Positions 6,222 to 63,443 of a stretch of 64,000 nt of DNA are shown here, one piece after another. Each line of letters starts with the position of its first letter. Positions within the stretch are counted from its first letter, which is position 1. The stretch lies in NCBI RefSeq assembly GCF_964355755.1, contig NC_092672.1:620001-684000 (forward strand), in the 5' to 3' direction. The DNA comes from Antedon mediterranea (lineage: Eukaryota; Animalia; Echinodermata). The notes beneath the pieces are model-generated. The model was not told the DNA's origin, made no database searches, and worked only from the letters and a program-made list of their open reading frames with translations. The position numbers and the translations under genes were made by a program.

Positions 6222-6357
6222 GATATAATATAGTTCACTATATATCTTCTGGTTATAGTTGAATGGAATACAAAGATTATAAAGTGTTATTAAAAGTCAT
6301 AATCAATCAAATATATTATATATTTATATATAATTATAGATAAACAGGTTGTTTATT

Positions 6358-8013
6358 CAGACCTCCCAACTCTCCCGAAAATCGCGGGACTCTCCCGATT
6401 TTTTTGGTTCTCTCCCGCTCTCCCGCGAAACCCAAATTTCCCCCCGATTTTTTTCATTTTTGGATAAAAATTTCCCGATTTTAAATAAGGAACATATACA
6501 ATATGGCCAAGCCAAGTAATCACATTTTTAACGTTGGATTTTGTTAAATTGACAGGGCGTTGTGAAGTTGGTTGTTTAGTTAAAAGCAAAACAAAAGCCA
6601 CACGCAAATACCATTGTTCGTAAAAAGATAAATAAAACAAAGCATACTCGAATAAAACAAAGAGTACTACTTCCCTTTTTTGTTGACTAATTAAATACGC
6701 CTAGGTGGGTCGCCTAAACAACATGGCATGGTGGTAGGTGTGGGCTGGCAGATAGAATTGCATTCAGCAAGCTTTTTGTGAATAAACGACCAATCAAATC
6801 AATCCCTTGAAAAACCACTTATTGACCACGTATAATTAAAAAAAAAGATGCATTTTTTAATTACTTATCAACTGATCGCCATTCAACTAGTTAAAATAAT
6901 ATTACAATTTCAAATAAATAATTTACGATGTCAGCTCGGCCGCCGAAGAAAAAAATTAAGTATGCAGCAAAGTTCAAACCAGAGTTCACAGAAGATTATC
7001 CATGCATTATTTCGGTCAGAGCAAAGATTATATAGCGCCGCTACGCGGCGCTATATAATCTTTGGTCAGAGGTGAACCTAGTTCAGCCAAAGATTGTATA
7101 GCGTAGCGTAGCTATACAATCTTTGGTTCAGCTAGATGGACGCTGTGCAATTTGACATTCAATATAAGCCAAAAATTCTTTGATATAAGTCATGGCGGTA
7201 GAAATGTTTCGGCAAGTTTATTTTATTTTTCATATGTTATGTGCTTTTTTAATGTATAATTAAATAAACTACAAAAGGCCAGAAAATGTTAGACGCAAGG
7301 CTGCAACCATTGAAGCTAGGCTAGTAGTGTTCACTCGACTAGCCTTTGTAGGCCTAGCCCTCAACAGTGCCAGTAGGTTACTAAACGGCGTCGTTCAGTC
7401 ACTCCAGGCCTAGGGATTGGTGAACCTTAGATAGGCTAGGCCTGTAGTTGGCCTGTCGATTCGGCTACTAGGCCTGGTGGTGGTCATACGTACGTCTAGG
7501 TACAAAACTGTATGTTATCTAGGCCTATCTATGTTTTTAAAAATATAATATTTAGCCTAAAAAAAAAATATTTAGCCTAGATCTGTAATTAGTTATTGAA
7601 ATTGATATTTTTTACAGACAAAGAAGCATGAAAAAGCTGCAAGAGTTGTGAACCAATGCCAGACTTTGTTGTTCAATATAAACAGAGATCCAATAGCAGA
7701 AAAGGTTATAAACGCGGAGGTGCTTTATACATCGTATATTGTAGAACACAATCTTCCATTCGCCATTACGCAGCACGCAAACCACCTTTTTCCAGCTATG
7801 TTCCCGGACTCAAATGCACTAAATGTGTTATGTTAATAATGTACATAAGATGAAAGATGAAAATAAAATATTGTATTGCAGCATTTTGAAAAAACAGACA
7901 ATTTATTTTTGTATATCTTTGTTGTGTAACGCGCGTCGCATAACGCGTCGTAATAATATATTTTTTACCGAAAAAATCTCCCTATTTTTTGTCAATCCAT
8001 GTTGGGAGGTCTG
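6358..8013 (+). mobile_element. Internally deleted hAT-superfamily DNA transposon with a transposase 5' remnant
   Basis: 13-bp TIR CAGACCTCCCAAC / GTTGGGAGGTCTG. Remnant peptides MSARPPKKKIKY..TLCNLTFNISHGGRN (6928-7205) and KKHEKAA..VINAEVLYTSYIVEHNLPF..HLFPAMFPDS (7618-7812) resemble hAT transposase N-termini. The catalytic region is absent. Confidence 0.85.
7022..7182. mobile_element. Three ultra-short palindromic insertions (7022-7064, 7088-7125, 7170-7182) with 7-8 bp TSDs
   Basis: GTCAGAG|CAAAGATT..AATCTTTG|GTCAGAG; GTTCAGC|CAAAGATT..AATCTTTG|GTTCAGC; ATATAAGC|CAAAAATTCTTTG|ATATAAGT. Confidence 0.85.
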
Positions 8014-9099
8014 CTTATTTATTATTATTAATCCCATTTGGTCTACTAGTGACCTACATGGGGTACTGTACAGTACAGCCACAGGACAATTAACATTCTT
8101 GGTTTGGTGACCATTGAATACACTTGCTTTTAGCACAGTTCAGATAAAATCAGAATGGCAAAATTAAAATTCTCTACAGAACTAATTGATTATTATCGGG
8201 AAGAAGAAGTGTTATGGAATATTCTGATGCCAGAATATAAGGATAGAGATAAACGAAAAGCGGCGTTAAATAAGAATAAGTGTTGCCTAGAAAAAAGAAA
8301 TATATAAGAAAGATACATTTATATGCTTTTAGTTTCTGAATATACCTACAGTATACAAAGATTGTCCCTAAATTGCAAGCTTATCGACATTCTATTCAAA
8401 AAGTAGGTCATTAGTGACCAAGTAAAGAAATAACTGTGGGATCACAACACTCTTCTCCTGACATCATATCAATCAATACAAGTCCCTTTGGAAGAATGAA
8501 GAACCAACTTCCAACTTCATTGATTGCATTTTTTCAACTCCACAACAAATTCCAGATACAGGTTAAAGGTCATTAAACCCTAACCCTTTTCTGGTGTTGT
8601 CTTTTGAATTTGATGTACTGTTTATCGTCTTTTTTATAATGTATTTTATGTATGAACCAAATAAATTCAATCAATCAATTAATCAACCCATTATCACTGA
8701 AAGGTGTAAAGAACAAGATTGCTGGTAATCCAATTACAGCCTGACCTCTACAAAATGCTCTGTAGATGAAGCTTGGCCTGGCAAACAGGCAGGACAGGAA
8801 ACAAACACACACACTGCACTATAATAATTAAGTTATCAAATATTAATGTTTAAGTGTTATAACATATAGACAACAAAGACAATTAGCAATAGCAGTGAAA
8901 TCTTCAAAACAACCAATCCTATCTGTTCCTTTCTTCAATTTATAAGACCAAAACAACACAGTAATAAAATCATAAACTATTAATCATCATTCAGTATTCA
9001 GCAACTTCTTTGTAAAACAAATAAAAAATACAACTCCCTATGCTGGTTTAGCTAGCAAGCATTACAATTGGCTCCAACCAGTAATAAAAATGGTGTATT

Positions 9100-12591: not shown

Positions 12592-14107
12592 TATTTTTGG
12601 AGAGACACACCTTACCGGTGACAGCGTTTGTTTAATGCTTTTGTCTTTCCTCGGCCTCGTGTCTTGTTTTTCATATATATATATATATTTTTATGTTTTT
12701 TTTGTAATTATTATTTTATGTTTATTGCCGAAATGAATAAAATAAATAAAAATAAAATAATCCGCTGCCTAGTCATGGAATTTGTGGCGTAACGGGTAAT
12801 GCTTAATTTTGAGTTCTCTCAGCCCTGGGTTCGAACCTCTACAGATTTTTTTTTATTGGAAAATGAATAATAAGCCTGTTGTTTTTCTTTTATTTTGAAA
12901 GAGAGATATTTAGATAGTTGAAATGTAATTTTGTAAAATCAGAAACAAAGTTGGATGGCATTCATTTTTCCATTAAATAGACTACCATAAAACCTCGAAA
13001 AAAGAAGCCGATTTTTTAGTACTCTTTGGTGGGCTTCTTTTCAACTTCTTTTCTTGAATTTCTAATAAAGATTAACAAATAAAAATGTAACAGTGTAGCA
13101 TGTTGACCGCGAATGACTAACAATACCATCTACCCCATTACACCTGAACACAAACTCATTTGCATAACAACGCACGGCATACCAAACTGTTTAAAATAGA
13201 GCTGAAAGGTACGGGTCACCGGAAATGACACCAGCTATATTTTGGAACAAAATATATGAGTCTTCTGTACCCCTACCATGCTTGAGGCTGAACAAAGACA
13301 ATTTTGAAAAATATAGAGCTGATGGGTTCCCGCTCGAAATGGCACTTTCCATGATTTGAAATTATATGAAACAAATAATTATATAAGACACATGGGCATC
13401 TTTATAATGTTCATGTGATCTCATCAGTCCTCCATTAACCAGCCCCATATTTAAAAATGCAGACAAACTGTCTGTTTAAATATTTATTCTGGGACGATCC
13501 GGCCATATACGCCAACTACCATAAACTTTTATTCATAACATATAATAGTACAACCGGACCGGGAGTACAACACAATATCTTGATATTTCCCTGCACAAAC
13601 TCATTTGCATGACGAAATCGTTTATGATGGGACAAAAATGTGGCATCTTGAATTGCCGGATTGGGAATTTCTTGTAATTTTGTCTGGCAACCTTTTCAAA
13701 ATGGCGACGAAGCCTCGCACGACAAGAAAGAGCGAGCTATATTTCCTATACCATCCTGGCTAGTTGAGAATTCTCAACTATTTTATGTTTTTTTCTACCT
13801 TTCTGGAAAATGATATAATCCAAATTGTATTAATACTACCAGTAGTAAACATTTAGAAACACTTGCATACATTCACTAATTTTAGTTGTTTGTAGTTTAA
13901 GACAATCTTCGTGACATTTAAATGAAAACAATACGATAAAAACTATTGTGTCTGTATTTTACAAGACTATGACTTCCGTATAACGTGCATTGTGGGTACT
14001 TCAATTTTTATAGAAAAGCTAGGGAATCCTAATTTAGTAGGCAGCATATGGGGGCGGGGCAACCAAACTTGCTTATCAAATCAAAGCACAGTAAAGCAAA
14101 GGATAAA

Positions 14108-17100
14108 ATTAATGTACGATCCAGTTTACCACTGTTCTCAACTATAGTCATTTTAGTATACTTGAGCACAGTGATAAAGAATAGGATAAACTTAACAATA
14201 TACAACAAATAGCATTAATGTACGATCCAGTTTAACACTGTTCTCAACTATAGTCATTTTGGTATACTTGAGCACAGTGATAAAGAATAGGATAAACTTA
14301 ACAATATACAACAAAAAACATTAATGTACGATGTAGTTTAACACTGTTCTCAACTATAGTCATTTTGGTATACTTGAGAACAGTGATAAAGAATAGGATA
14401 AACTTAACAATATACAACAAATAACATTAATGTACGATCCCGTTTAACACTGTTCTCAACTATAGTCATTTTGGTATACTTGAGCACAGTGATAAAGAAT
14501 AGGATAAACTTAACAATATACAACAAATAACATTAATGTATGATCCCGTTTAACACTGTTCTCAACTATAGTCATTTTGGTATACTTGAGCACAGTGATA
14601 AAGAATAGGATAAACTTAATAATATACAACAAATAACATTAATGTACGATCCAGTTTAACACTGTTCTCAACTATAGTCATTTTGGTATACTTGAGCACA
14701 GTGATAAAGAATAGGATAAACTTAACAATATACAACAAATAACATTAATGTACGATCCAGTTTAACACTGTTCTCAACTATAGTCATTTTGGTATACTTG
14801 AGAACAGTGATAAAGAATAGGATAAACTTAACAATATACAACAAATAACATTAATGTATGATCCCGTTTAACACTGTTCTCAACTATAGTCATTTTGGTA
14901 TACTTGAGCACAGTGATAAAGAATAGGATAAACTTAACAATATACAACAAATAACATTAATGTACGATGCCGTTTAACACTGTTCTCAACTATAGTCATT
15001 TTGGTATACTTAAGCTACAGTGATAAAGAATAGGATAAACTTAACAATATACAACAAAAAACATTAATGTACGATCCAGTTTAACACTGTTCTCAACTAT
15101 AGTCATTTTGGTATACTTGAGAACAGTGATAAAGAATAGGATAAACTTAACAATATACAACAAATAACATTAATGTATGATCCCGTTTAACACTGTTCTC
15201 AACTATAGTCATTTTGGTATACTTGAGAACAGTGATAAAGAATAGGATAAACTTAACAATATACAACAAATAACATTAATGTACGATCCCGTTTAACACT
15301 GTTCTCAACTATAGTCATTTTGGTATACTTAAGCTACAGTGATAAAGAATAGGATAAACTTAATAATATACAACAAATAACATTAATGTACGATCCCGTT
15401 TAACACTGTTCTCAACTATAGTCATTTTGGTATACTTGAGCACATTGATAAAGAATAGGATAAACTTAATAATATACAACAAATAGCATTAATGTACGAT
15501 CCCGTTTAACACTGTTCTCAACTATAGTCATTTTGGTATACTTGAGCACAGTGATAAAGAATAGGATAAACTTAACAATATACAACAAATAACATTAATG
15601 TACGATCCAGTTTAACACTGTTCTCAACTATAGTCATTTTGGCATACTTGAGCACAGTGATAAAGAATAGGATAAACTTAATAATATACAACAAATAGCA
15701 TTAATGTACGATCCCGTTTAATACTGTTCTCAACTATAGTCATTTTGGTATACTTGAACACAGTGATAAAGAATAGGATAAACTTAATAATATACAACAA
15801 ATAACATTAATGTACGATCCAGTTTAACACTGTTCTCAACTATAGTCATTTTGGTATACTTAAGCTACAGTGATAAAGAATAGGATAAACTTAATAATAT
15901 ACAACAAAAAACATTAATGTACGATCCCGTTTAACACTGTTCTCAACTATAGTCATTTTGGTATACTTGAGCACAGTGATAAAGAATAGGATAAACTTAA
16001 CAATAAACAACAAATAACATTAATGTACGATCCAGTTTAACCCTGTTCTAAATTATAGTCATTTTGGTATACTTGAGCACAGTGATAAAGAATAGGATAA
16101 ACTTAACAATATACAACAAATAACATTAATGTACGATCCAGTTTAACACTGTTCTCAACTATAGTCATTTTGGCATACTTGAGCACAGTGATAAAGAATA
16201 GGATAAACTTAATAATATACAACAAATAGCATTAATGTACGATCCCGTTTAACACTGTTCTCAACTATAGTCATTTTGGTATACTTGAACACAGTGATAA
16301 AGAATAGGATAAACTTAATAATATACAACAAATAACATTAATGTACGATCCAGTTTAACACTGTTCTCAACTATAGTCATTTTGGTATACTTAAGCTACA
16401 GTGATAAAGAATAGGATAAACTTAATAATATACAACAAAAAACATTAATGTACGATCCCGTTTAACACTGTTCTCAACTATAGTCATTTTGGTATACTTG
16501 AGCACAGTGATAAAGAATAGGATAAACTTAACAATAAACAACAAATAACATTAATGTACGATCCAGTTTAACCCTGTTCTAAATTATAGTCATTTTGGTA
16601 TATTTGAGCACAGTGATAAAGAATAGGATAAACTTCGAATAAACAGAAAATAACATTAATGTACGATGCCGTTTAATACTGTTTTAAACTACAGTCATTT
16701 GAGTATAATATTAATCACAGATAAAGAATAAGATCAACTTTAATACTATTTATTAAATTAAAAAAACTAATTCTATATTAACACATATTATTTAAATATA
16801 CTTTCACTGCTGATTTCTAGTATAAACAGGCCATAGGCCTATACATGGCTGCAGTCGCGTCCTCAAATTTGAGTTGGTGTTTACCGACCGACCGACATAG
16901 TGAGCTGTAGAGTCGCGTTTGCACGCTACTAAAAAGTTCACAAAAACCGTAAGACGGGCACAGGGGAGTTTGTTCGAAACTCCAACCCCTCCCCTGGCTA
17001 TGCGTTTAGATTTTTCATGCCTCTTTTACAAACCAAGATTATTAGAATACTATTAGGAGGATCAAACACAATTCTTGTTGCCAGATTTCATTGACATTAC

Positions 17101-17612
17101 AGGTATGAAGTATATCATATCATTAATGTACGATCCAGTTTAACACTGTTCTCAACTATAGTCATTTTGGTATACTTGAGCACAGTGATAAAGAATAGGA
17201 TAAACTTAATAATATACAACAAAAAACATTAATGTACGATCCAGTTTAACACTGTTCTCAACTATAGTCATTTTGGTATACTTGAGCACAGTGATAAAGA
17301 ATAGGATAAACTTAACAATATACAACAAAAAACATTAATGTACGATCCCGTTTACCACTGTTCTCGACTATAATCATTTTGGTATACTTGAGCACAGTGA
17401 TAAAGAATAGCATAAACTTAATAATATACAACAAATAACATTAATGTACGATCCAGTTTACCACTGTTCTAAACTAAAGTCATTTTGGTATACTTGAGAA
17501 CAGTGATAAAGAATAGGATAAACTTAACAATATACAACACAAAACATTAATGTACGATCCAGTTTAACACTGTTCTCAACTATAGTCATTTTGGTATACT
17601 TGAGCACAGTGA
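14108..17612. repeat. 106-bp satellite in two blocks (14108-16740, about 25 copies; 17121-17612, about 4.5 copies)
   Basis: Unit CATTAATGTACGATCCAGTTTAACACTGTTCTCAAC...; unit starts at 14213, 14319 and 14425. Confidence 0.97.
16823..16935 (-). mobile_element. Very short Helentron-associated (HINE/DINE-1-like) element
   Basis: Minus strand TTTTTAGTAGCGTGCAAACGCGACTCTA..(GTCG)n..ACGCGACT plus a terminal GCCAT..ATGGC hairpin; same termini as 19334-19957. Confidence 0.65.
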
Positions 17613-18289
17613 AACGAAAGCTTAATTATTGTCTGATATCGGGAATTGTATTAATACCTAGACCTATTCTGCAAGTATTTAACAAAATAATGTAAAATAA
17701 ATCTTAAATTAGATTGTAAATAAAATAGAGTAGGCCTAGGCCTAGCTAGGGCCTAGGCCTACTACTACACTAGGCCTAGGCCTACTAGAGGCCTACTAGC
17801 CTAGGCCTAAAAGGCTAAGCTAGGCTATATAGGCCTAGGCCTACTACTAGGCTCTAGCCGCGCCTACTAGATAGCTAGTATATACTGTAGTAGTAGGCCC
17901 TAGCTAGAGCTCTACCTAGCTAGGCCGGCCTAGCTAGGGCCTGCCCCCTGCTGGCTGCTAGAGCCTAGCCTGCTATCCCATCTACCCAGATTTAATTCAA
18001 AAATCTATTTATTATTATACCTGCTGTCTGTAGTCTAGTAGGCCTTATCTTAGACTTAGAGTAGTAATAGCCTGCCTAGTATTAATTGTATTATTTTTGA
18101 TGTATTTTTTTTCTGTTTTTTTTAATTTTTTTTTATTTAACCATAATTAATGAGGGTGATCCATCCAGCTGTTGCTGATCATTAGGGACCCTCAGAGGTT
18201 CACAAGACAAACATATACACTAGATGCTCTACATAAACAAAGTCTTAATACAGTATTACAAGTCTTTGGGAGTGGAGTAATTTGGTCCT

Positions 18290-21946: not shown

Positions 21947-24900
21947 TCATTCATTTTCTTTCACCACTGTGCTCTTTTTCTTTCGACTTTTTTTCACCCG
22001 TCCTTCTTTCTCTGCTGCATTCACTGCAGACAGTTTGTCACTCACTTCTTTTATGTGGTTGGCCTGAAATAAGAAATAGAAAACTATTACAATATTACAG
22101 ATTCACTACAAACTACAGTAATGTATAATAAAATATTCAAATAAACAATTTGATAAATTAAGTTATTTTCCATTTTCGCTAATTATTTGTCATATAACAA
22201 TTTACAAATACTGATAAGGTATTATTTAGCTAATCCAAGCTTATCAACTACATGTACGTACTTGACATGATTTCTTTAATAAAAAAAAGTAGAGAAAAAC
22301 AGTAAGCAGGATAACAAAAATAAGTTACATATGCTGTATAATAATACCTGTAGAAAGATATATGAGAGCTGTATTTGGTGAATCTTTTGTACTTACCAGG
22401 GCACCACTTCTCCTGGCCAGTAAGCGGACATCATCTGTATTTATCACAGATCTCTTACCATGCCTGAAAATAAGCCAAATAACACTAACAGTCAATCAAT
22501 CGAACACAAATAATAATCAAACACATTTATTATTTTGTGGCATAACGGAATAGAATGAGTTTAAATACACTTGTTTATGGAGAAGCATAACTTTATGGTG
22601 TCACTGACAACATTTTATGTCATGTTTATGGAGAAGCATAACTTTATGGTGTCACTGACAACATTTTATATCATGTTGGATGTAATATTGATTTATCTGT
22701 CATTTATCTGACCATTGAATGTAATCAGTCTTTAAGAAAAAATGTTTATTTATAATTTTCAGTATATCACCAGGTGATTTAGTTTGTGAATGGTATCAAC
22801 TGAAAGACTAGAAACCGGAGGCAAACAAACTCAGAATTAATGTAATCAGTACTACTATTAAACTTTGTGATTACCTTGCAAATAACTCCAAATCCACAGC
22901 AGCAATTTCTATTAGAAGATAACAAAGTTCAATATATTTAATCTCACTGAAAAAGACAGTCATTGATTCAATTAATTAATTGAATCTCTAACAATTAAGA
23001 GCTAGTTATAGGCCTAGTTATAATTCATTGTATACTTTTTAGTGGTGGTTGGAAGATGTTTGTGTTTCGATGGTTGGTAAAAACAAAAATAACAACTCTC
23101 TGGTAAAAGTCTACAATATTTTTTCATGACAAATAAACAAATTTCTCTCTCGAAAACTCTTCTTATGAGATGATGTAGTTGATCATGGTAGTGCTGTATA
23201 TCTTTGATGTAGTTGATCATGGTAGTGCTGTATGTCTTTGATGTAGTTGATCATGGTATTGCTGTATGTCTTTGATGTAGTTGATCATGGTATTGCTGTA
23301 TGTCTTTGATGTAGTTGATCATGGTATTGCTGTATGTCTTTGATGTAGTTGATCATGGTATTGCTGTATGTCTTTGATGTAGTTGATCATGGTATTGCTG
23401 TATGTCTTTGATGTAGTTGATCATGGTAGTGCTGTATGTCTTTGATGTAGTTGATCATGGTAGTGCTGTATGTCTTTGATGTAGTTGATCATGGTATTGC
23501 TGTATGTCTTTGATGTAGTTGATCATGGTATTGCTGTATGTCTTTGATGTAGTTGATCATGGTAGTGCTGTATATCTTTGATGTAGTTGATCATGGTATT
23601 GCTGTATGTCTTTGATGTAGTTGATCATGGTATTGCTGTATATCTTTGATGTAGTTGATCATGGTATTGCTGTATGTCTTTGATGTAGTTGATCATGGTA
23701 TTGCTGTATGTCTTTGATGTAGTTGATCATGGTATTGCTGTATGTCTTTGATGTAGTTGATCATGGTAGTGCTGTATATCTTTGATGTAGTTGATCATGG
23801 TATTGCTGTATGTCTTTGATGTAGTTGATCATGGTATTGCTGTATGTCTTTGATGTAGTTGATCATGGTATTGCTGTATGTCTTTGATGTAGTTGATCGT
23901 GGTAGTGCTGTATGTCTTTGATGTAGTTGATCATGGTAGTGCTGTATATCTTTGATGTAGTTGATCATGGTATTGCTGTATGTCTTTGATGTAGTTGATC
24001 GTGGTAGTGCTGTATGTCTTTGATGTAGTTGATCATGGTATTGCTGTATGTCTTTGATGTAGTTGATCATGGTAGTGCTGTATGTCTTTGATGTAGTTGA
24101 TCATGGTAGTGCTGTATATCTTTGATGTAGTTGATCATGGTATTGCTGTATGTCTTTGATGTAGTTGATCATGGTAGTGCTGTATGTCTTTGATGTAGTT
24201 GATCATGGTATTGCTGTATGTCTTTGATGTAGTTGATCATGGTATTGCTGTATATCTTTGATGTAGTTGATCATGGTAGTGCTGTATGTCTTTGATGTAG
24301 TTGATCATGGTAGTGCTGTATGTCTTTGATGTAGTTGATCATGGTATTGCTGTATGTCTTTGATGTAGTTGATCATGGTAGTGCTGTATGTCTTTGATGT
24401 AGTTGATCATGGTAGTGCTGTATATCTTTGATGTAGTTGATCATGGTATTGCTGTATGTCTTTGATGTAGTTGATCATGGTAGTGCTGTATGTCTTTGAT
24501 GTAGTTGATCATGGTAGTGCTGTATATCTTTGATGTAGTTGATCATGGTATTGCTGTATGTCTTTGATGTAGTTGATCATGGTAGTGCTGTATGTCTTTG
24601 ATGTAGTTGATCATGGTAGTGCTGTATATCTTTGATGTAGTTGATCATGGTATTGCTGTATGTCTTTGATGTAGTTGATCATGGTAGTGCTGTATGTCTT
24701 TGATGTAGTTGATCATGGTATTGCTGTATGTCTTTGATGTAGTTGATCATGGTATTGCTGTATGTCTTTGATGTAGTTGATCATGGTAGTGCTGTATGTC
24801 TTTGATGTAGTTGATCATGGTAGTGCTGTATGTCTTTGATGTAGTTGATCATGGTATTGCTGTATGTCTTTGATGTAGTTGATCATGGTATTGCTGTATG

Positions 24901-26488
24901 TCTTTGATGTAGTTGATCATGGTATTGCTGTATGTCTTTGATGTAGTTGATCATGGTAGTGCTGTATGTCTTTGATGTAGTTGATCATGGTAGTGCTGTA
25001 TGTCTTTGATGTAGTTGATCATGGTATTGCTGTATGTCTTTGATGTAGTTGATCATGGTATTGCTGTATGTCTTTGATGTAGTTGATCATGGTAGTGCTG
25101 TATGTCTTTGATGTAGTTGATCATGGTATTGCTGTATGTCTTTGATGTAGTTGATCATGGTATTGCTGTATGTCTTTGATGTAGTTGATCATGGTATTGC
25201 TGTATGTCTTTGATGTAGTTGATCATGGTATTGCTGTATGTCTTTGATGTAGTTGATCGTGGTAGTGCTGTATGTCTTTGATGTAGTTGATCATGGTATT
25301 GCTGTATGTCTTTGATGTAGTTGATCATGGTAGTGCTGTATGTCTTTGATGTAGTTGATCATGGTAGTGCTGTATGTCTTTGATGTAGTTGATCATGGTA
25401 TTGCTGTATGTCTTTGATGTAGTTGATCATGGTATTGCTGTATGTCTTTGATGTAGTTGATCATGGTATTGCTGTATGTCTTTGATGTAGTTGATCATGG
25501 TAGTGCTGTATGTCTTTGATGTAGTTGATCATGGTAGTGCTGTATGTCTTTGATGTAGTTGATCATGGTATTGCTGTATGTCTTTGATGTAGTTGATCAT
25601 GGTATTGCTGTATGTCTTTGATGTAGTTGATCATGGTAGTGCTGTATGTCTTTGATGTAGTTGATCATGGTATTGCTGTATGTCTTTGATGTAGTTGATC
25701 ATGGTATTGCTGTATGTCTTTGATGTAGTTGATCATGGTATTGCTGTATGTCTTTGATGTAGTTGATCATGGTATTGCTGTATGTCTTTGATGTAGTTGA
25801 TCGTGGTAGTGCTGTATGTCTTTGATGTAGTTGATCATGGTATTGCTGTATGTCTTTGATGTAGTTGATCATGGTATTGCTATGTCTTATGTAATGTAAG
25901 CAATTGTCTATTTATTACATTTGCTATTTATATAACATTTCTCAGCTTCTTACCACATTGACGGAAGGTTGCCTCGGCAAGTGCTGCAATAACTTGCTTC
26001 GAAAATGTAACTTCTATTTCGCGAGATGTCTCCTCGCAAATCTGTCCGACAGTAAAATGTACAGCTGCTTTCAAGCGCTAAATTAAAAAAAAAGGTTACA
26101 ACCAAAATTATTATCATGACATGTGAATGTGATGATGCATAATAACTTACCGTATATTATATAAGGATTAAATAGCTACTGCTTCTTCTGGCTTCAAATT
26201 GAATACAATCAAATCATCCTATATTTGAATGGAATAACCCACTAAGTCTAAGGCTAATCTGTCATATCTCTCATCTCACAACACAGTGTCAACTCCCACC
26301 AGCAGGCCAGACAGTTACTTACTAAATAGTACTGTACTACTCTAGCCTCCATTAACAGGCAGCTAGGCCTAGGTCTGGGCTCTGTTTATTATATATGGCC
26401 TATCTTTATTCTATTATATGAATACAATTTTTGGTAGCTAAATTACCTGAGTATGTGCTAGTTTTTCATATTCATCTTGGGATTCCAT
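21947..26488 (-). CDS. CENPS: Centromere protein S (APITD1/MHF1), histone-fold protein
   Basis: Exons 26447-26488, 25954-26077, 22875-22908, 22397-22463 and 21947-22063 give MESQDEYEKLAHTQRLKAAVHFTVGQICEE..FSKQVIAALAEATFRQCEIAAVDLELFARHGKRSVINTDDVRLLARRS. It is missing from the ORF track because all exons are short. Confidence 0.95.
23172..25885. repeat. 34-bp minisatellite, about 80 copies, in CENP-S intron 2
   Basis: Unit GATGTAGTTGATCATGGTA(T/G)TGCTGTAT(G/A)TCTTT. Confidence 0.98.
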
Positions 26489-28415: not shown

Positions 28416-31400
28416 ATGTCAGGAAGGTTTACTCGTACTAATTCAATGGCCCAGCCAAGTTCATTACAAGTTGTGAAAGATTTTGAACGTGCCTCGTCTC
28501 CGCTCCGAGTCTTCGTTGATGCTAAGAAGAAAATAAATGGAATCTTTCATGGACTTTACACGCATATTGAAGACAGCAGGAAGTTTATGAAATCTGGTAA
28601 ATCAATTGTACTAACAGTAAAACACTAATAATACAATAACTTTTCCTGAACTCTTTGAAATCTAAATTGAATCAATGAAGTTTGTTCATTATCAATATAC
28701 AATAATGTTTAAAAAATGATTCAAAATGTATTTTGTTTTAGATGCAACTGGTGATGCTGACATCATCACTACAGAAGAAAAAGAGAAGATTGATGGCTTC
28801 TCTGATCAGGTGGATTGTATTGCGGAAATTCTTGCCAGGGATAACATGAAGGTGGCATTCTTTGGCAGGTAATATAATAAAATGCATGTGGTCTGTTTTG
28901 CATATTCCATAGTAATTCCAAAGTGTAACTCGTACATTTACAACATCAAACAAGTTTGATTTACTTATGTTAAGTTGCATCATGGACATATAAATTAGTG
29001 CTTACATTAAAGGTGTATTTTATGTAGATTAATAATTACTAATTATTGTTTATATTAGAACAAGTAATGGCAAAAGCACTGTTGTGAATGCAATGATGCG
29101 TGACAAGGTCCTGCCCACAGGTATCGGACATACAACGGACTGTTTCCTGAGTGTTGAGGCTAGTAATCTGGATGAGGCATACATTATCACACCTGATTCT
29201 GAAGAAAAGAAAAGCATCCAGGTAAGGGTGAAGACACATATCTGTGGTTTGGTTTGGTTTATTAGAATTATCTGTAATACATTAGGTAAGTTAAAGCCGC
29301 CCACTCACCTAACACACTTCAAAGATGGCCCTGGTGTGTGCTATTTAGGGCCTACATAATTTGGTAAATACACACCAAGGTACAAACAGCACACCTAGAT
29401 CACATGTAAAAGATGAAATTGTCTATTTTAAGAATAAATTGAAGCTAGCCAAAGATTATTTTTAATTGATTTTTACCATTTTTAGTCTGTGAATCAGATT
29501 GCCCATGCTCTTTCAAGTGAAAACCTGAATGACCAGAGTTCTATGGTTCGAGTGTTTTGGCCAAAAACAAGATGCCATCTGTTACAGAATGATGTTGTAC
29601 TCATGGATAGGTAACACTGCAAACATTTTTATTGCTAATCTTTAATTTTAAGCGAATTCAAAGTTGGTTGCTTGGAATTTACAAATACAAGAGCTTTTAA
29701 TACCAGTATTAGGTTCTTTAAATATATGGGAGATAGAATTCCTAAAATTACTGTAACCTGGGAGGAAGTGGAAGAGCATTATTGCTGTATTGGAGATTTG
29801 AGAACTTATTATATGTCTTGAGTTCATATGAAATGTCTGCAGGCAGAAATGAATGTATAAATGCTTTATACTCTCACATGACAGCCCTGGTGTTGATGTA
29901 ACTACAGGCCTTGATGAATGGATTGATAAGTACTGCATGGATGCTGATGTGTTCGTCTTGGTTTCTAATGCAGAATCTACTCTTATGAGGACGGTGAGTA
30001 AGCATTCCATTTATCTTTCTAGTTCATAACGATCATTAGGGAAATTATCTCATGCAACATTATGCAAAGTGCATTAAATATGTGCTTTTGCATTATTGAG
30101 AGGAAGAATTTCCAAAAGAGATGTCTTCAATTTCCTTTCCCTATTACCGTTTGATATTTTAAAGAAAATGTCACTCACTTCCACAATTATCATTAGACTA
30201 GCAACACAGAAACCTATGGACCTCAAACCTTTCTATTTGGAAATGTTTACAAAGGGAAGTTGCCATGTTTTATAGTTTTTTATCATAAATATTACACAGA
30301 TTTATTAAAGACACCTTTTGCTTTACAGGAGAAAGGATTTTTCCACAAAGTCAGTGAAAAGTTATCAAAACCAAACATATTTATTTTGAATAATCGTTGG
30401 GATGCGGCAGCATCAGAACCAGAGTTTATGGATGCTGTGAGTAAACATAAATAGTTCACTTATTGTTGTATAATAATAATACATAAAAATGTCTATAGCA
30501 TCGTTATCTTTCTCTCTTATGGCGCTATGTGGATTAACAACTCATAAAACATTAGCAATTAGTGATGTGTCTCTGACCCCACTTATTTTCAGTCATATGT
30601 TCTTGAAACACACAATGATTGAAAGAATTTGCCTCCATTATCTCTGTTTTGTTAATTTTGAATACAAATTAAATAAAAAATCAAATAACTTTTTTAGGTG
30701 AAACAACAACATCTTGAACGTGCTGTTGACTTTCTTGTAAATGAATTGAAAGTAGTAACAGCTCAGCAAGCAGAAGATCGGATCTTCTTTGTGTCGGCAA
30801 AAGAAGTGTTGCAGGCCAGGATACAAAAGCAACAGGGTATGCCAGAGTCAGGTATTTGCATGCTAGCTTGCTGGCTGTTCTGTTTTACTTTTGCAATATT
30901 TTAATTTAATATAATTTATAAATTAAAGTTTGCATTTTAATTTAAAGAATGAAATTTTAAATTACAATGTGTGCCTTTTTTTGTAACTTAATGTATTATT
31001 TTAATTCAATAGAAATTTTTCTCAATTTAAATGTCTTTTTTAAATTCCCAATATTTCCCAATTTCAATATGTTAGAGTGGATTGTTTTTTTTGTACAATA
31101 ATTTAATGTGATAAGCTTTAATTTTTAAATGTAATTATTTTTTGACAATATTAGTGCATATTGTGTGCCTTTTCTAATATGGTCTAGCCTAAGTTTTCAG
31201 AGAGTGACCTTTTTAATGCATTTGTATGCTTTTAAGCCAAGTGCTTTAGTTTCATTAGAATAAATGTATTGTATATGTATATTAAAGCTCAGGTACAGGC
31301 ATGATTTTTAAATATAATATCTGGTTAATTGTACATAAATCAAATATTTGTAACAGAAATCAAGACGAAAAAACATAAATTCCCCCTAATATGGTCAAAT

Positions 31401-34400
31401 ACAAAATTTGGCAAAATTCTGCCAAAAAAAACCAGGAAGACTTTTTTTCAGTAGTTAGGTAGTTAACATAATGTAATAACATGTCTGGTGACTCCCTAGA
31501 AGGTGAAAAAAGATGGTAGATATACGGTGGATAATTTTTGCTATAGCATGAAAATAAAAATCTGAAGTTGAATAAAAATACCAGAAATGTAAAATTCAAG
31601 TTATATTACCTATATTTAGTCATCTGATAACATTTTTTACCACACCGTTTATTTTTCATAGCTTTTTAAAATGCCTCTCTAATAAAAAAATTTGTGTACA
31701 AAAGAATAGAGATTTTAGTGTGTAATTTGAACTGTCCCCCCACTGATAAGAAAGTGCTAATTTTCAACAAGCTCGTGTAACACAAATAAAATCCCAAAAA
31801 TTATGAAACTTAGGGGAAACTATTGATCGATAATTATTGAAATGTATGACCAATAGAAATGTTGTACCCGCACCTGGCCTTTAAGGGATTTAGATTGATA
31901 ACACACCAACACAGACTGTGTTACTTCTTGACACAAAAAATACAACCTTTCCTCCTGCAATTTATTATCATTTTGTGTTTTTTCAAGGTGGTGCGTTAGC
32001 AGAAGGTTTTCAAGCTAGACTGTTTGAATTTGAAAATTTTGAACGAAAATTTGAGGTAATTTTCTTTATTGAGTCAGAGAAAACAGTTTTAGTGAATACA
32101 TAATAATCTACGGTAAATGTTGTCCGTTAGATTGAGATAAGACACAATGGGTATACTTGTTTGATATTTATTATATTGTTTCAAGAGGTTCCCACTTCTG
32201 TGCTAGGCCATTCGCCAATGGTTTCCTCTCGAGCTATTTGCCCAATCATTAAATCAATTGGAGAAGCATACGAGAAGTCTGAGGCATTACTGTACATACA
32301 CATGTATTTTCTGCTCTACATTACAAAAATTTAACATCTTGTACTGTTTTTTAAAAAGGAATGCATATCTAAGTCTGCAGTAATCACTAAGTTTGAGCAG
32401 CATGGCAGACAAGGTCAGCAGATAACACAAGAGATACAGGCTCTGATGGAATCTGTTTATGAAAGAGCTGCAAGAAAGAGGTACACTTTAATCATAGTTG
32501 AAACTGTTAGTACAGCAATATACATTGAAAGTTTAGTTTAATATATGAATTCACTTATGGTTGCTGTTTATGCCACAACTGCAAGAAAAGGGTACAGTTT
32601 AATGGTAGTTCAAGTTTTGGCCGTTAAATTGATCCTGTGTTTGTTAGTACAGCAATATGCATTGCAAGTACTGTTTCTGAGCAGCGTGGTCATGACGTTA
32701 TCGGTTGTTGATGTTGACGCTGTACGCCTCTCAATGGTTGTAGATTGATGACGTCGGGACCAGGCTGCTCGTTTGATTGATTGATAATAAATAAATAAAA
32801 TAAATAATAACATTTATAAAGCGCAAGAGACAAAGGTTTCAAAGCGCTGTGTTTTCCAAGATCTGTGCAAGTAGTAGCGTGTGATTATGCTTCTCTGAAG
32901 AGATGAGTTTTTAGTTTAGTTTTAAATGTGATAACAGATTTTGATGAGCGTATTTCGAGGGGTAGAGTGTTCCAGAGTTTTGGGGCTGCGACAGCGAAAG
33001 CACGATCACCGTAAAACCGAGTTCTGGAACGGGGTCCAGGTTTTAGAAGAAGTCTGCTGGATGAACGAAGCGAAGCTCTTTCATTTACATAATGTTGGTA
33101 TTTACATTTTAGAGCATCATGTATTGAGAAAAGAAAAGAGAAAGGTGATTTGCTTGACCACATCACCAAACAACTCACCATTCTAACGACAGAATGTAAG
33201 GATAAGATTAAAGATATCTCTGAACAAGCAGAATATAAGGTGAGATCAGTTTTTTTTTAAAGTCTTTTTATTACTTTTGTTTTTTCTATGTAAGTGAATA
33301 CCTTTATTAAAAATATGGAATAACCTATTCAAAGTCTGATTTAATTCATCCTTAACAAACTATACTACTACAATAGGCTCTGTAACTTTTGCATAACTGC
33401 TGTTCTCAATAACAGAATGATTTAATTAATCTATGTTTTTAAGGGACAATGCATCTTAACATACTATACTATACTACTGTAGGCTTTTGCATAACTGCAG
33501 TTCTCATCTTTTAGTAATCCCCATAAAAAGTACATACTGTAAGATAATAATTGTTATATTTAACAGATATCAAGTGCTATGACTGAGGAAATTCGGCGTC
33601 TACACATTCTAGTTGATCAATTTGATCGACCATTTCACCCAGATCCACTTGTTATCAAGGTTTACAAAGAGGTATGTAACATCAATATTATTTACATCAT
33701 ATTCTTGTAGTATTTGTTTATATGTGCAGTATTTATATGTACAGTATTTATATGTACAGTATTTATATGTACAGTATTTATATGTACAGTATTTATATGT
33801 ACAGTATTTATATGTACAGTATTTATATGTACAGTATTTATATGTACAGTATTTATATGTACAGTATTTATATGTACAGTATTTATATGTACAGTATTTA
33901 TATGTACAGTATTTATATGTACAGTATTTATATGTACAGTATTTATATGTACAGTATTTATATGTACAGTATTTATATGTACAGTATTTATATGTACAGT
34001 ATTTATATGTACAGTATTTATATGTACAGTATTTATATGTACAGTATTGATATGTACAGTATTGATATGTACAGTATTTATATGTACAGTATTTATATGT
34101 ACAGTATTTATATGTACAGTATTTATATGTACAGTATTTATATGTACAGTATTTATATGTACAGTATTTATATGTACAGTATTTATATGTACAGTATTTA
34201 TATGTACAGTATTTATATGTACAGTATTTATATGTACAGTATTTATATGTACAGTATTTATATGTACAGTATTTATATGTACAGTATTTATATGTACAGT
34301 ATTTATATGTACAGTATTTATATGTACAGTATTTATATGTACAGTATTTATATGTACAGTATTTATATGTACAGTATTTATATGTACAGTATTTATATGT

Positions 34401-36623
34401 ACAGTATTTATATGTACAGTATTGATATGTACAGTATTGATATGTACAGTATTGATATGTACAGTATTGATATGTACAGTATTGATATGTACAGTATTTA
34501 TATGTACAGTATTTATATGTACAGTATTTATATGTACAGTATTTATATGTACAGTATTTATATGTACAGTATTTATATGTACAGTATTTATATGTACAGT
34601 ATTTATATGTACAGTATTGATATGTACAGTATTTATATGTACAGTATTTATATGTACAGTATTTATATGTACAGTATTTATATGTACAGTATTTATATGT
34701 ACAGTATTTATATGTACAGTATTTATATGTACAGTATTTATATGTACAGTATTTATATGTACAGTATTTATATGTACAGTATTTATATGTACAGTATTTA
34801 TATGTACAGTATTTATATGTGCAGTATTTATATGTGCAGTATTTATATGTGCAGTATTTATATGTGCAGTATTGATATGTGCAGTATTGATATGTGCAGT
34901 ATTGATATGTGCAGTATTGATATGTGCAGTATTGATATGTGCAGTATTTATATGTACAGTATTTATATGTACAGTATTTATATGTACAGTATTTATATGT
35001 ACAGTATTTATATGTACAGTATTTATATGTACAGTATTTATATGTACAGTATTTATATGTACAGTATTTATATGTACAGTATTTATATGTACAGTATTTA
35101 TATGTACAGTATTTATATGTACAGTATTTATATGTACAGTATTTATATGTACAGTATTTTATTTCCTTTTTATATCATATTTCTATGTATCTTTTATACT
35201 CAATACCTTTAATTTCCACAAATAACGTATACTGTCATGTTATTGAAAACACATAATATAATACTACATACATGTCTGAACAACACCCCTGGATGACTTG
35301 TTTTGACATATTCTTGTCTGGCTGACTGCCCTGGATGGTGTTTACCAGTGTATAGTTGGGACACAGACAGTGGCTTGTTACTAATAATAGTCTAGTATAA
35401 TAATTGTTAAACACTCTCACTTTGACTCTCACTCAGGAGAGACTGCAGAAAAAGAACCAGGAGATAGACAATAAATACCAGATCACTTATGATTGTCTAA
35501 TGTTATTATTAATACTAATAGTCTGCAGAGTACAATAACATCTAATCATAACAATACGCAAAACCAAATTATATCCTATATAATAATAAATGCAATATAT
35601 AAAATGAACACGTCAAATTGTTTTACAGGAGTTGCAGAAGTTTCTAGAAGAAGGCTTGGGAAGAAATCTTGATGCTCGGTGTTCATCGACAGTCTTACAA
35701 TCACTTGAACAAACTCAAACACAGATGACAGGTACTGCTTTCACTCATAACCATTTCCTGACCACACTTCACTTTCATGAATACAGTAATTATAACTGAT
35801 AAAGTAATACTTAGTACGGACAACAAGAGAGTAGCAGAAAATAATGTACAGAGCCTGAAAATACAAGGCAAATTAAAGATACTTGGTGGGTTATTTTTAG
35901 TATTATTTTTTATTATTTTTTGTTTTTCACACATTTTTTCTTTTTAGAACACATGTCCGCTCTTCTTCCGGAAGAACGTCAAAGTCAGATGAGCAGTCTC
36001 ATATTCCGTCGTGATTTTGATTTGAGTTACCGACTCGACTGCCGCCATCTCTGTGCAGACTTCAAAGAGAATATACAATTCCAATTCTCCTTGGGCCTAA
36101 CTGCTATGATGAATAAGTTCCTAGGTCCTAAGGGTACTAGAGTAGCCTTAACGGGCTTTACATCCATGGTAAGTACACATCATAATAATAATATAATAAC
36201 ATTGTTTATCATAACACAATAAGATACTTTTATGAATGGTTGTATGTATATAATAATGACTGAATTAATTGTTTTTCCCTTTTATTTATTATCCCTTTTT
36301 ATGAATGTTTTAAACTAATTTTATGAAAATATAGTGGTATTAGCCTTTGGATTACTTTCATTCATTCATTCATTCATTCATTCATTTATTTACACAAAGC
36401 AAAATTCAAAATATGTTGACAAAATATGAATCAAATTAATAGTAATGCCTTGTGTCTGGAGAAACTCAAATAAGCTCAGAGAGCTTTAAGACTGGTTCCA
36501 CCAGGAAAAAAGGTGTTATAATAAAATAATAATAATATATAATAGACAGAGACAAACAGGGAAACAGACGGTACATACACAACGCAAGAGACCAAAAAAA
36601 ATAAATAAATAAAAAAAAAATAA

Positions 36624-39268: not shown

Positions 39269-39368
39269 GTAGAACCAGGGAAGAACGACACTCTTCCTTG
39301 GTACAACCAGGGAGTTGCTTATTTTACAACTCCCTGGTACAACCATGGAGTAATCTCCATGGTACAAC
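39269..39368. mobile_element. Array of three ultra-short palindromes separated by a 7-bp direct repeat
   Basis: GTAGAAC|CAGGGAAGA..TCTTCCTTG|GTACAAC|CAGGGAGTTG..CAACTCCCTG|GTACAAC|CATGGAG..CTCCATG|GTACAAC. Confidence 0.85.
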
Positions 39369-47100: not shown

Positions 47101-49200
47101 TTACAATTAAGTACCGTACTTCTATGTACTAAGTTACAATGCGTTATGAATGATATCCTAAATATTATAATAATATATTGAAACAATTATGCAATTTACT
47201 TCCATCTAGTTTATTGCCTTGACCTTATTACCACACGTATGAGTGCATCACAGACCGAGAAACGTATTCTGAATACCGTTTGTAATATTATTAGTTTTTT
47301 AGGCCTATAATAGAAATGTAAACAAATGAACTACGCAAAGGCCGCAATGTATGGATAGGAAGCCATATACAATAATATAAAACTCAAAAAGTGAGGCAAC
47401 TCAATGCGCTCTTGCTAAAGTTCCAATTAACATATAAATCATAGGCATAATTTGGCTGGTCAATTCAATTCAAATTCTTTATTCATCCCGCGTGGGCCAA
47501 TTTCAAAACGAGATGGCTGTGAGAGTTGGTTTCACTTTTTTATATTAGGTCTACGTTATCAACTTTAATGTTAAAATGTGACAATTTCTATTTTTTTTAT
47601 CTTTGTTTGATCACATGGCGTTAGTTATTTTTTTTAGGGTGAGAAGAAATTGTAAAAAAAAACGCCTCATTAATATTAGTGGATTCTCTCAGCCAGTGAA
47701 GTTTCAACTTGCAACAATTTCGATTCAAATTTTGTGAATTTATTTTACGGGGAAGTTGTAGGAAGGCATGATCTCTAACTCTCTTTTTGTTATTCGAAAA
47801 GGCTATAAATAAAGTTGATTTAACTTATAAATGTTTCTTTCTTTGTGATTGTACTCAAATCAAATTTCTTTCAATCCTATTCATTTCTTTCTTGTTTATT
47901 TAAAACATTTGATTTCTCAATTGCCAAAACAAACACTTTTGACATCTGCCCCGAAACCCATCAAACGCCTATGTTCAACGGACCCTCTCACAGCCATCTC
48001 GTTTTGTCTCCTTCTGCTTGGTTTCATCATTTTGTATTTCGTTTACTTTTAGAAATCATGACGCACTGATTCGTGTAATTTGATACGCTATATAGACAAC
48101 CAAAACAACTGAAATCATAACAATCTAGCTTTCTATTGAAATTATTAAAACTGAATCGACTGTTTTGGTAGCGACGACGCATTACTTTGCGAGGTAGACA
48201 CGTGCAGTTGACACCTGTGGAGTGAGGTTGTAGAGCCACGGGACGACGAGCCGAGTTAGGTTGTTATTGATGAATACGATTTGTTCACACGTGTCTGTTA
48301 TGACACCTGGAAACACTAGTAGATTGTTAAGGATGACCGTAGCCAACAGAGGGACGAGACGCAAAGGTTTTCCCACCATTAACAGATGGTGCTTGTCGAC
48401 AGAGATTATATAGAAAACAGATTTATTGTAATCAGCATACAATAATGCGCGTTAAAAAGTTTATAATAATTTTACGCGCGCGTCAACTTTGGGAGTTTAT
48501 GCGTAACGTCACACGAACGAAGTGCGAAGTTACTTAGCGCATATTATCGATTTGTTTAAAATGATTATTGTTTAAAAATCGAAAATGACATAAAATCAGG
48601 ACAGACAGTTTCTTCTCATTGCAGAATTGCTTTTAATACATCCCTCAAATTTACATATAAATCATAATTTGATAAGCACCAAATCTAAATGCTTTATTTA
48701 GTTAAAATAAAAAATAATTAAGAAACATTATTTCTAACTTTTTTATTACCGCACAGTAATTAAGCATCATTCTATAAGATACCAATGATAATGAATGAAA
48801 AATACACGGACAATGATTATTCTCTTTGAAAGAACCGACCTGTAATCGTCAGTAGGCCTACGAGATACACATTTTTTATACCGTACCACTGGAATGTAAT
48901 AATAATATTTCAATAAAATAGTCAATTTAGAAATATATTTAAAAGTAAATTTTACTAAAAGAAAAATTGAAACAAAACACTAAATAATACTTCATAATAT
49001 ATACTATTTATATATTCATTAAAATACCATAGAATTAATCATTTCAATGGAAATATTCCGACATTTAACTTACTTAATTTAGTAAGCAGATGTAATGGTT
49101 TTAATTTAGTAAACATAATAATCTTGTTATGGCTGCTGAAACACGGCCTATAAGTACAATGTTTATAAAATGTGTTCTTTCAGAAGCTTAAGGAGTCTTT

Positions 49201-63443
<14,243 letters not shown>

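Follow-up and report, generated by a model that had tools for sequence, protein, structure and literature searches.

The DNA analysed here is a 64,000-nt stretch of the Antedon mediterranea genome (the window). It contains an internally deleted hAT-like DNA transposon, the first transposase exon of which is interrupted by three short inserts, and a second, separate cluster of palindromes (Table 1).

Table 1. Coordinates of the host element, its inserts and the second palindrome cluster, counted from the first nucleotide of the window.
Feature	Position	Strand	Description
Host: internally deleted hAT-like DNA transposon, 1656 bp	6358..8013	+	Terminal repeats, homologues, copies with other flanks
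Host flanking duplication, 6 bp	6352-6357 and 8014-8019		One mismatch
Host terminal inverted repeats, 13 bp	6358-6370 and 8001-8013		
Host transposase exon 1	6928..7211	+	N-terminal zinc-finger-like region, broken by three inserts
Insert 1, left target copy, 7 bp	7015..7021	.	Single copy in empty-site contigs
Insert 1	7022-7064	.	43 bp; perfect 20-bp arms; exact 7-bp duplication GTCAGAG
Internal hairpin of insert 1, 17 nt	7035..7051	.	7-bp stem, 3-nt loop; positions 14-30 of the parent end
Insert 1, right target copy, 7 bp	7065..7071	.	
Insert 2	7088-7125	.	38 bp; 15-bp perfect arms; sister end sequence
Insert 2, target copies GTTCAGC, exact 7 bp	7081-7087 and 7126-7132 (whole feature 7081..7132)		
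Insert 3	7170-7182 (with duplication 7162..7190)	.	13 bp; 4-bp arms; 8-bp duplication, one mismatch
Host gene intron	7212..7617	+	GC donor here, GT in other copies
Host transposase exon 2 fragment	7618..7836	+	Truncated
Second cluster	39269..39368	.	CA..TG palindromes at 39276-39300, 39308-39336 and 39344-39361, of 25, 29 and 18 bp

The hAT-like host and its three inserts

The best BLASTP match of the host sequence to six homologues improves from E 0.004 for the sequence as it stands to 1e-10 with the inserts removed, and to 3e-29 when exon 2 is added. Eight of 17 candidates are homologues of the exon 2 fragment, and CxxC and HGG motifs are common to these; where the window has TGG, empty copies of the host have TGC, which yields the first Cys of CxxC. 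Host homologues (E 1e-7 to 3e-4) carry the labels PF14291 and PF27073, one is named ZMYM6-like protein, and one has a weak DUF659 match below the cut-off, all of which we take to be labels linked to hAT. Pfam searches of the host fragments in the window returned nothing useful. Families of hAT elements with 6-bp duplications are designated hAT6 (PMC12730594), and with hAT6 the host shares the 6-bp duplication (with one mismatch), short terminal repeats and a fragment resembling hAT-type transposases. The one host copy examined, a candidate hAT6 member, differs in that its catalytic part is deleted.

Deletion of all three inserts, each together with one repeat copy, produces a stop-free frame from position 6928, as the initial annotation had reported. 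Insert 1 with its duplication (50 nt) is the sole frame-shifter of the three. Insert 2 preserves the frame and introduces a stop codon; insert 3 preserves it and introduces none, so the frame argument alone does not demonstrate insert 3. The restored frame does not amount to a working transposase gene, since this host copy is dead for further reasons, namely its truncation, a 15-nt deletion near 7206 relative to exon 1 of other copies, and its GC splice donor.

We scanned the window for CA..TG sequences of 10-60 bp with arms of at least 7 bp and an exact 7- or 8-bp duplication, with 100 shuffles as control. This strict scan gave four matches against a shuffle mean of 0.04 (maximum 1). Inserts 1 and 2, with folding z-scores of -8.84 and -9.02, are among the four; they are genuine and far above chance. 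Insert 3 was caught by a loose scan, the nine matches of which, against a shuffle mean of 6.13, are at chance level, and its folding z-score is 0.00, so that its status as a hairpin is unsupported. It can alternatively be read as a 14-bp insert at 7169-7182 with an exact 7-bp duplication. The locus had originally been described as three flanked hairpins, with a comparison against shuffled sequence as a test: coordinates and sequences proved right for all three, but both the hairpin and the excess over shuffled sequence apply to inserts 1 and 2 and not to insert 3. As a general explanation, chance palindromes, local duplications or an assembly artefact are barely credible. Insert 3 by itself does not exceed chance as a hairpin, but for inserts 1 and 2 such an origin is already refuted, the same ends recur at 69 metagenome sites among the matches listed (see below), and the filled form occurs in contigs of two samples, with empty forms in paralogues.

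Empty sites, local clustering and a longer parent

The stretch or a part of it is present in 10 public runs, and the contigs of four were compared. A contig of run X1 (depth 135) with a different left flank joins position 7021 to 7140 and has a single copy of the target of insert 1 and of insert 2; a contig of run X3 (depth 21.1) shows the same join, again with single copies of both targets. Against an expectation of 23 letters, the joints comprise 27 and 31, a surplus of 4 and 8 letters without an assigned place. At insert 3, both contigs have a 21-letter gap, on which the reality of this insert rests. The filled form is present in the same runs at depths of 45.3 (X1) and 7.64 (X3). Other host copies thus lack the three inserts, which are therefore true insertions, made after this copy had reached its locus. 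Insertion with empty sites had been claimed from the window sequence, with the proviso that hairpins in all copies would speak against it; the empty copies in X1 and X3 bear the claim out. Insert 3 is accordingly a true insertion, yet without a significant hairpin, and is likely an older or more trimmed scar. A spliced intron or a ciliate-type eliminated sequence was ruled out, because the empty sites belong to further genomic copies, whose flanks differ. As a separate observation, an X3 contig spans the host without its intron; the filled copy with the GC donor keeps it. None of the runs is listed as RNA and X3 is only guessed to be so, and the intron-free contig is therefore not taken to show expression.

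The absence of all three inserts from other host copies would make the hotspot one of the locus. That one host copy has three scars while the others have none suggests that place rather than sequence makes this hotspot. The cluster lies 90-260 bp downstream of the host start codon, and P elements insert preferentially at promoters and at sites close by (PMC7776569). The four strict matches form two pairs within 100 bp, in agreement with the local hotspot proposed at the outset; random placement gives this arrangement in 3 of 200,000 trials, a comparison chosen after the fact. In the second cluster, three palindromes of other end families are stacked on four copies of the target GTACAAC (the first with one mismatch), an arrangement that resembles successive rounds of insertion and excision at a single site. 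A comparable stack was noted at 1463-1545 of metagenome locus L015, where two adjacent scars, 29 and 37 bp long and from different end families, have one target in common. In the flanks of the metagenome loci, extra scars are rare (only 2 in 114 kb).

Contigs of X1, X3, X10 and X6, from three organisms, match positions 7022-7051 and then continue into mutually similar sequence that is not in the window. Insert 1 thus has, as its first 30 nt, the end of a longer element, of which only 30 nt past the shared end are visible. Collapsed remnants of larger elements had been among the suggestions of the initial annotation, and this longer element supports them; end joining had not been named there. 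The summed depth in X1 amounts to some 8,200-8,750 over 7023-7050 and to 1,058 over 7055-7062, which, as depth is not copy number, we take only as a sign that parent ends are several times commoner than the closed form. A whole parent with these ends was not found in the 64-kb window, and the run contigs showed none for insert 2; an origin from both tips is shown for insert 1 and not for inserts 2 and 3.

The parent end contains the internal hairpin of insert 1. If both ends share the 30 nt, the hairpin recurs at the two parent ends as a 14/17 direct repeat, and a join made through it comes to 13 + 17 + 13 = 43 bp exactly, in either loop orientation. The exact 43-mer has a contig depth of 140 in X1 and a two-change 43-mer one of 329, compared with 45-57 for single-locus contigs; pieces across the same 43-mer junction also occur in organism B. 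Other loci in X1 contain length variants, in which pieces of insert 1 are separated by 3 or 5 gap letters (among the matches listed, 16 of 45) and those of insert 2 by 4 or 5. Insert 2 also occurs in a form that is 5 letters shorter, with depths of 287.5 in X1 and 670.4 in X6. Templated filler between 17-nt tails, considered as a source of the 9 central nt of insert 1, was ruled out, as the parent has the same letters.

Related inserts in metagenome contigs

We searched metagenome contigs for the two 11-letter tips at a spacing of 4-30 nt, and hence for inserts of up to 52 bp, and obtained at least 120 loci. Among the 120 matches listed, target duplications were exact over 7 bp in 57, had one mismatch in 15, and measured 8 bp and 6 bp in one locus each; 46 had none. 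The 73 loci with a 7- or 8-bp duplication represent 69 sites among these matches, whereas 12 shifts of all 120 listed loci yielded three duplication matches. The other 47 did not enter later counts; they appear to be partly decayed members and partly chance matches. The flanks of the retained sites are mostly non-coding: long ORFs cover a median of 0 in the 46 longer loci, as opposed to 0.35 in 25 excluded loci among the matches listed. Pfam matched two of eight flank ORFs, to laminin and C2H2 zinc-finger families, which suggests animal DNA. A 25-letter end pattern was absent from the metagenome contigs, 20-letter patterns from viral contigs and a 24-letter pattern from prokaryote genomes. No unclosed parent end with a duplication occurred in 196 kb of metagenome loci, and no parent in the 120 loci listed. 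Locus L034 contains, at 1501-1805, nested CAAAGATTGTA/CAGAGATTGTA ends in both orientations with no 7-bp duplication, possibly the end of a foldback-like element.

The inserts at the 69 listed sites fall into 22 length classes of 28-52 bp, and 56 are longer than 34 bp; at the 68 listed sites with 7-bp duplications there are 63 different sequences. In 81 of 110 target readings among the matches listed, position 2 is T and position 6 is A. We analysed two insert families, of 36 and 19 listed sites, with 14 other sites left out. A hairpin with a 3-nt loop recurs in both families around positions 14-28; in the 55 listed inserts the loop is kept on at least one arm in 30 and on both arms in seven, and 12 contain filler letters. 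The commonest length is 41 bp (10 of the 69 listed sites), which corresponds to the hairpin-collapse product of those families.

This diversity bears on the proposal that the inserts are micro-elements made of terminal inverted repeats only and mobilised by a P-like transposase. Their perfect arms and duplications would suit such elements, as would the 43-mers that are deeper than single loci in X1 and recur with the same junction in organism B. However, a MITE family is homogeneous in size (PMC3698922), unlike the many lengths and the nearly all different junctions found among the matches listed, and in X1 the depth of the parent end far exceeds that of the closed form. Fly P elements moreover need internal transposase sites beyond their 31-bp repeat (PMC7776569), and 43 bp would probably be cramped for two cuts. 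Such micro-elements, put forward by the initial annotation, are therefore disfavoured, and we regard them as very unlikely.

A second alternative dispenses with transposase: the element would fold back at replication and the polymerase slip between the hairpin copies, leaving a fixed palindrome between both target copies. Deletion between the 14/17 hairpin repeats gives exactly the 43 bp of insert 1, and the matching metagenome product is the commonest one. A precedent is nearly precise excision of Tn10 (its copy-choice model is cited second-hand in PMC12524634), in which a short inverted repeat inside each end likewise becomes a direct repeat and a fixed palindrome is left between the target copies. 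Excision of Tn10 is, however, bacterial and host-mediated with one fixed product, whereas many lengths with fillers occur here: 59 of the 69 listed sites have lengths other than 41 bp. The loops on both arms and the filler letters among the listed inserts are better suited to end joining, and collapse of this kind appears unlikely as the general origin.

Probable excision scars and the length of their arms

We consider it quite probable that the three inserts are donor-site scars of longer cut-and-paste elements, themselves probably of the P superfamily. Longer elements would have inserted with 7-bp duplications and later been cut out, and the cell would have joined the tips left on the chromosome. 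The transposase would cut one strand inside the terminal repeat and thereby leave single-stranded tails, which could pair where they match over a few bases, in this case at the GC-rich arms of the hairpin, or be joined bluntly or with filler. If the same match is reused, the same 43-mer may arise again at other loci. The tails may measure about 25-30 nt and not 17 nt, although this step is less sure.

Several features of such scars are present, namely both target copies, an empty site, two tips (insert 1), and mixed lengths and junction types. The P-like ends that had been proposed from CA..TG termini and 7-8-bp duplications are supported, and the palindromic target is a further P-like feature. 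CAAAG-type ends are typical of P elements. Pfam revealed no P/THAP9-type transposase among 18 of the 31 long ORFs of the window, a set from which tandem-array ORFs were mostly left out; P membership is thus an inference from the anatomy of the inserts. Against the scar reading it can be held that identical 43-mers at several loci, as judged by X1 depth, would equally be given by a mobile mini-element, that neither a transposase nor a whole parent was found, the parent being visible only 30 nt beyond the shared end, and that insert 3 is weak.

Excision scars of P elements are already known, from flies. They consist of a duplication, up to 17 nt, a junction, up to 17 nt and a duplication (PMC2895639 Table 1; PMC5466332), their junctions contain short matches, are blunt or carry filler, and favoured products recur (PMC2895639, PMC5466332). 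Compared with these fly junctions, our inserts are alike in retaining both target copies, both tips and CA..TG ends, in joining by match, bluntly or with filler, in their mixed lengths and in recurrent identical products. It is this resemblance of duplications, tips, lengths and junctions to end joining at fly P sites that leads to the scar reading. The inserts differ in having a 7-bp and not an 8-bp duplication, in parent-derived arms longer than those of fly scars, in a GC-rich hairpin in the end that sets the commonest product, and in residing in natural animal DNA. What this locus adds are empty paralogues, a parent end that can be seen, the hairpin geometry and arms above 17 nt. Our literature search, which covered titles and the beginnings of abstracts, with Dfam, Repbase and most subscription papers outside its scope, returned nothing on these termini or on natural P-type scars. 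A further parallel within the P superfamily is offered by Galileo/1360, which also has 7-bp, rarely 8-bp, duplications and a palindromic target in which positions 2 and 6 are T and A (PMC4168063). The 7-bp Galileo target is GTANTAC (PMC4168063); ours is less strict at positions 1 and 7, and the likeness is drawn for duplication and target.

The P transposase of the fly makes its cut in one strand 17 nt inward from either end (PMC7776569). With 17-nt tails, insert 1 would need 9 filler letters, and from 23 nt it needs none, so its arm is at least 23 nt long, above the Drosophila limit of 17 nt per end, and the fly mechanism does not fit unchanged. In a test that allowed up to 2 filler letters and one mismatch, 17-nt tails fit 11 of 36 and 6 of 19 related inserts in the two families (17 of 55), as opposed to 32 of 36 and 18 of 19 (50 of 55) for 26-nt tails, all among the matches listed; the test is partly circular, because the reference arms come from two inserts and end at 27-28 nt, and longer tails always fit more.

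Arms longer than those of fly scars may reflect a deeper cut. We tentatively propose, as a possibility somewhat short of even, that in a P-like lineage with CAAAGATT ends, present in several animals, the non-transferred strand is cut about 25-30 nt inside each end, just past the 3-nt-loop hairpin, into which the released single-stranded tail would then fold. Three causes of the long arms remain: the deeper cut itself, gap repair from the sister chromatid that is aborted after a short stretch, and transposase-free slippage. Where gap repair (SDSA) is aborted and end joining follows at a P donor site, an arm can likewise be lengthened by copying of the element from the sister chromatid (PMC8951532). 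The assay of that study scored synthesis over long stretches of a 14-kb gap, whereas the arms here crowd at 20-28 nt, sometimes on both sides, in a scan reaching 52 bp. This crowding and the loop on both arms favour the deeper cut.

As scars, the inserts would mark past insertion sites of vanished elements, and could explain palindromes of 13-52 bp that might pass for RNA hairpins or for mobile elements of minimal size. Should the deeper cut be true, the 17-nt stagger of the fly enzyme would not be fixed across the P superfamily, the conserved tail hairpin would be a testable part of the transpososome, and natural scar lengths could reveal the cut position without an assay.

Some other features of the window were recorded. 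A lone P-like end, CAGAGATTATATAG, lies at 48400-48420 and leads into a GC-richer stretch; within 8 kb there is no partner end that has a duplication. The sequence TAGGCCTA has a raw count of 25 in the window, with eight occurrences in 17700-17850 and two in the host intron. Pfam matches to Dynamin_N at 29036-29356 (+ strand, E 3e-9) and to a Gryzun-like domain at 49360-49677 (- strand, E 1e-5) are exon-sized and belong to genes of the host genome. Young long tandem arrays occupy 14103-17612, 23171-25888, 33717-35159, 52675-53386 and 57092-58356, with periods of 106, 34, 15, 27 and 21, and the 106-bp unit contains a 54-nt imperfect palindrome.
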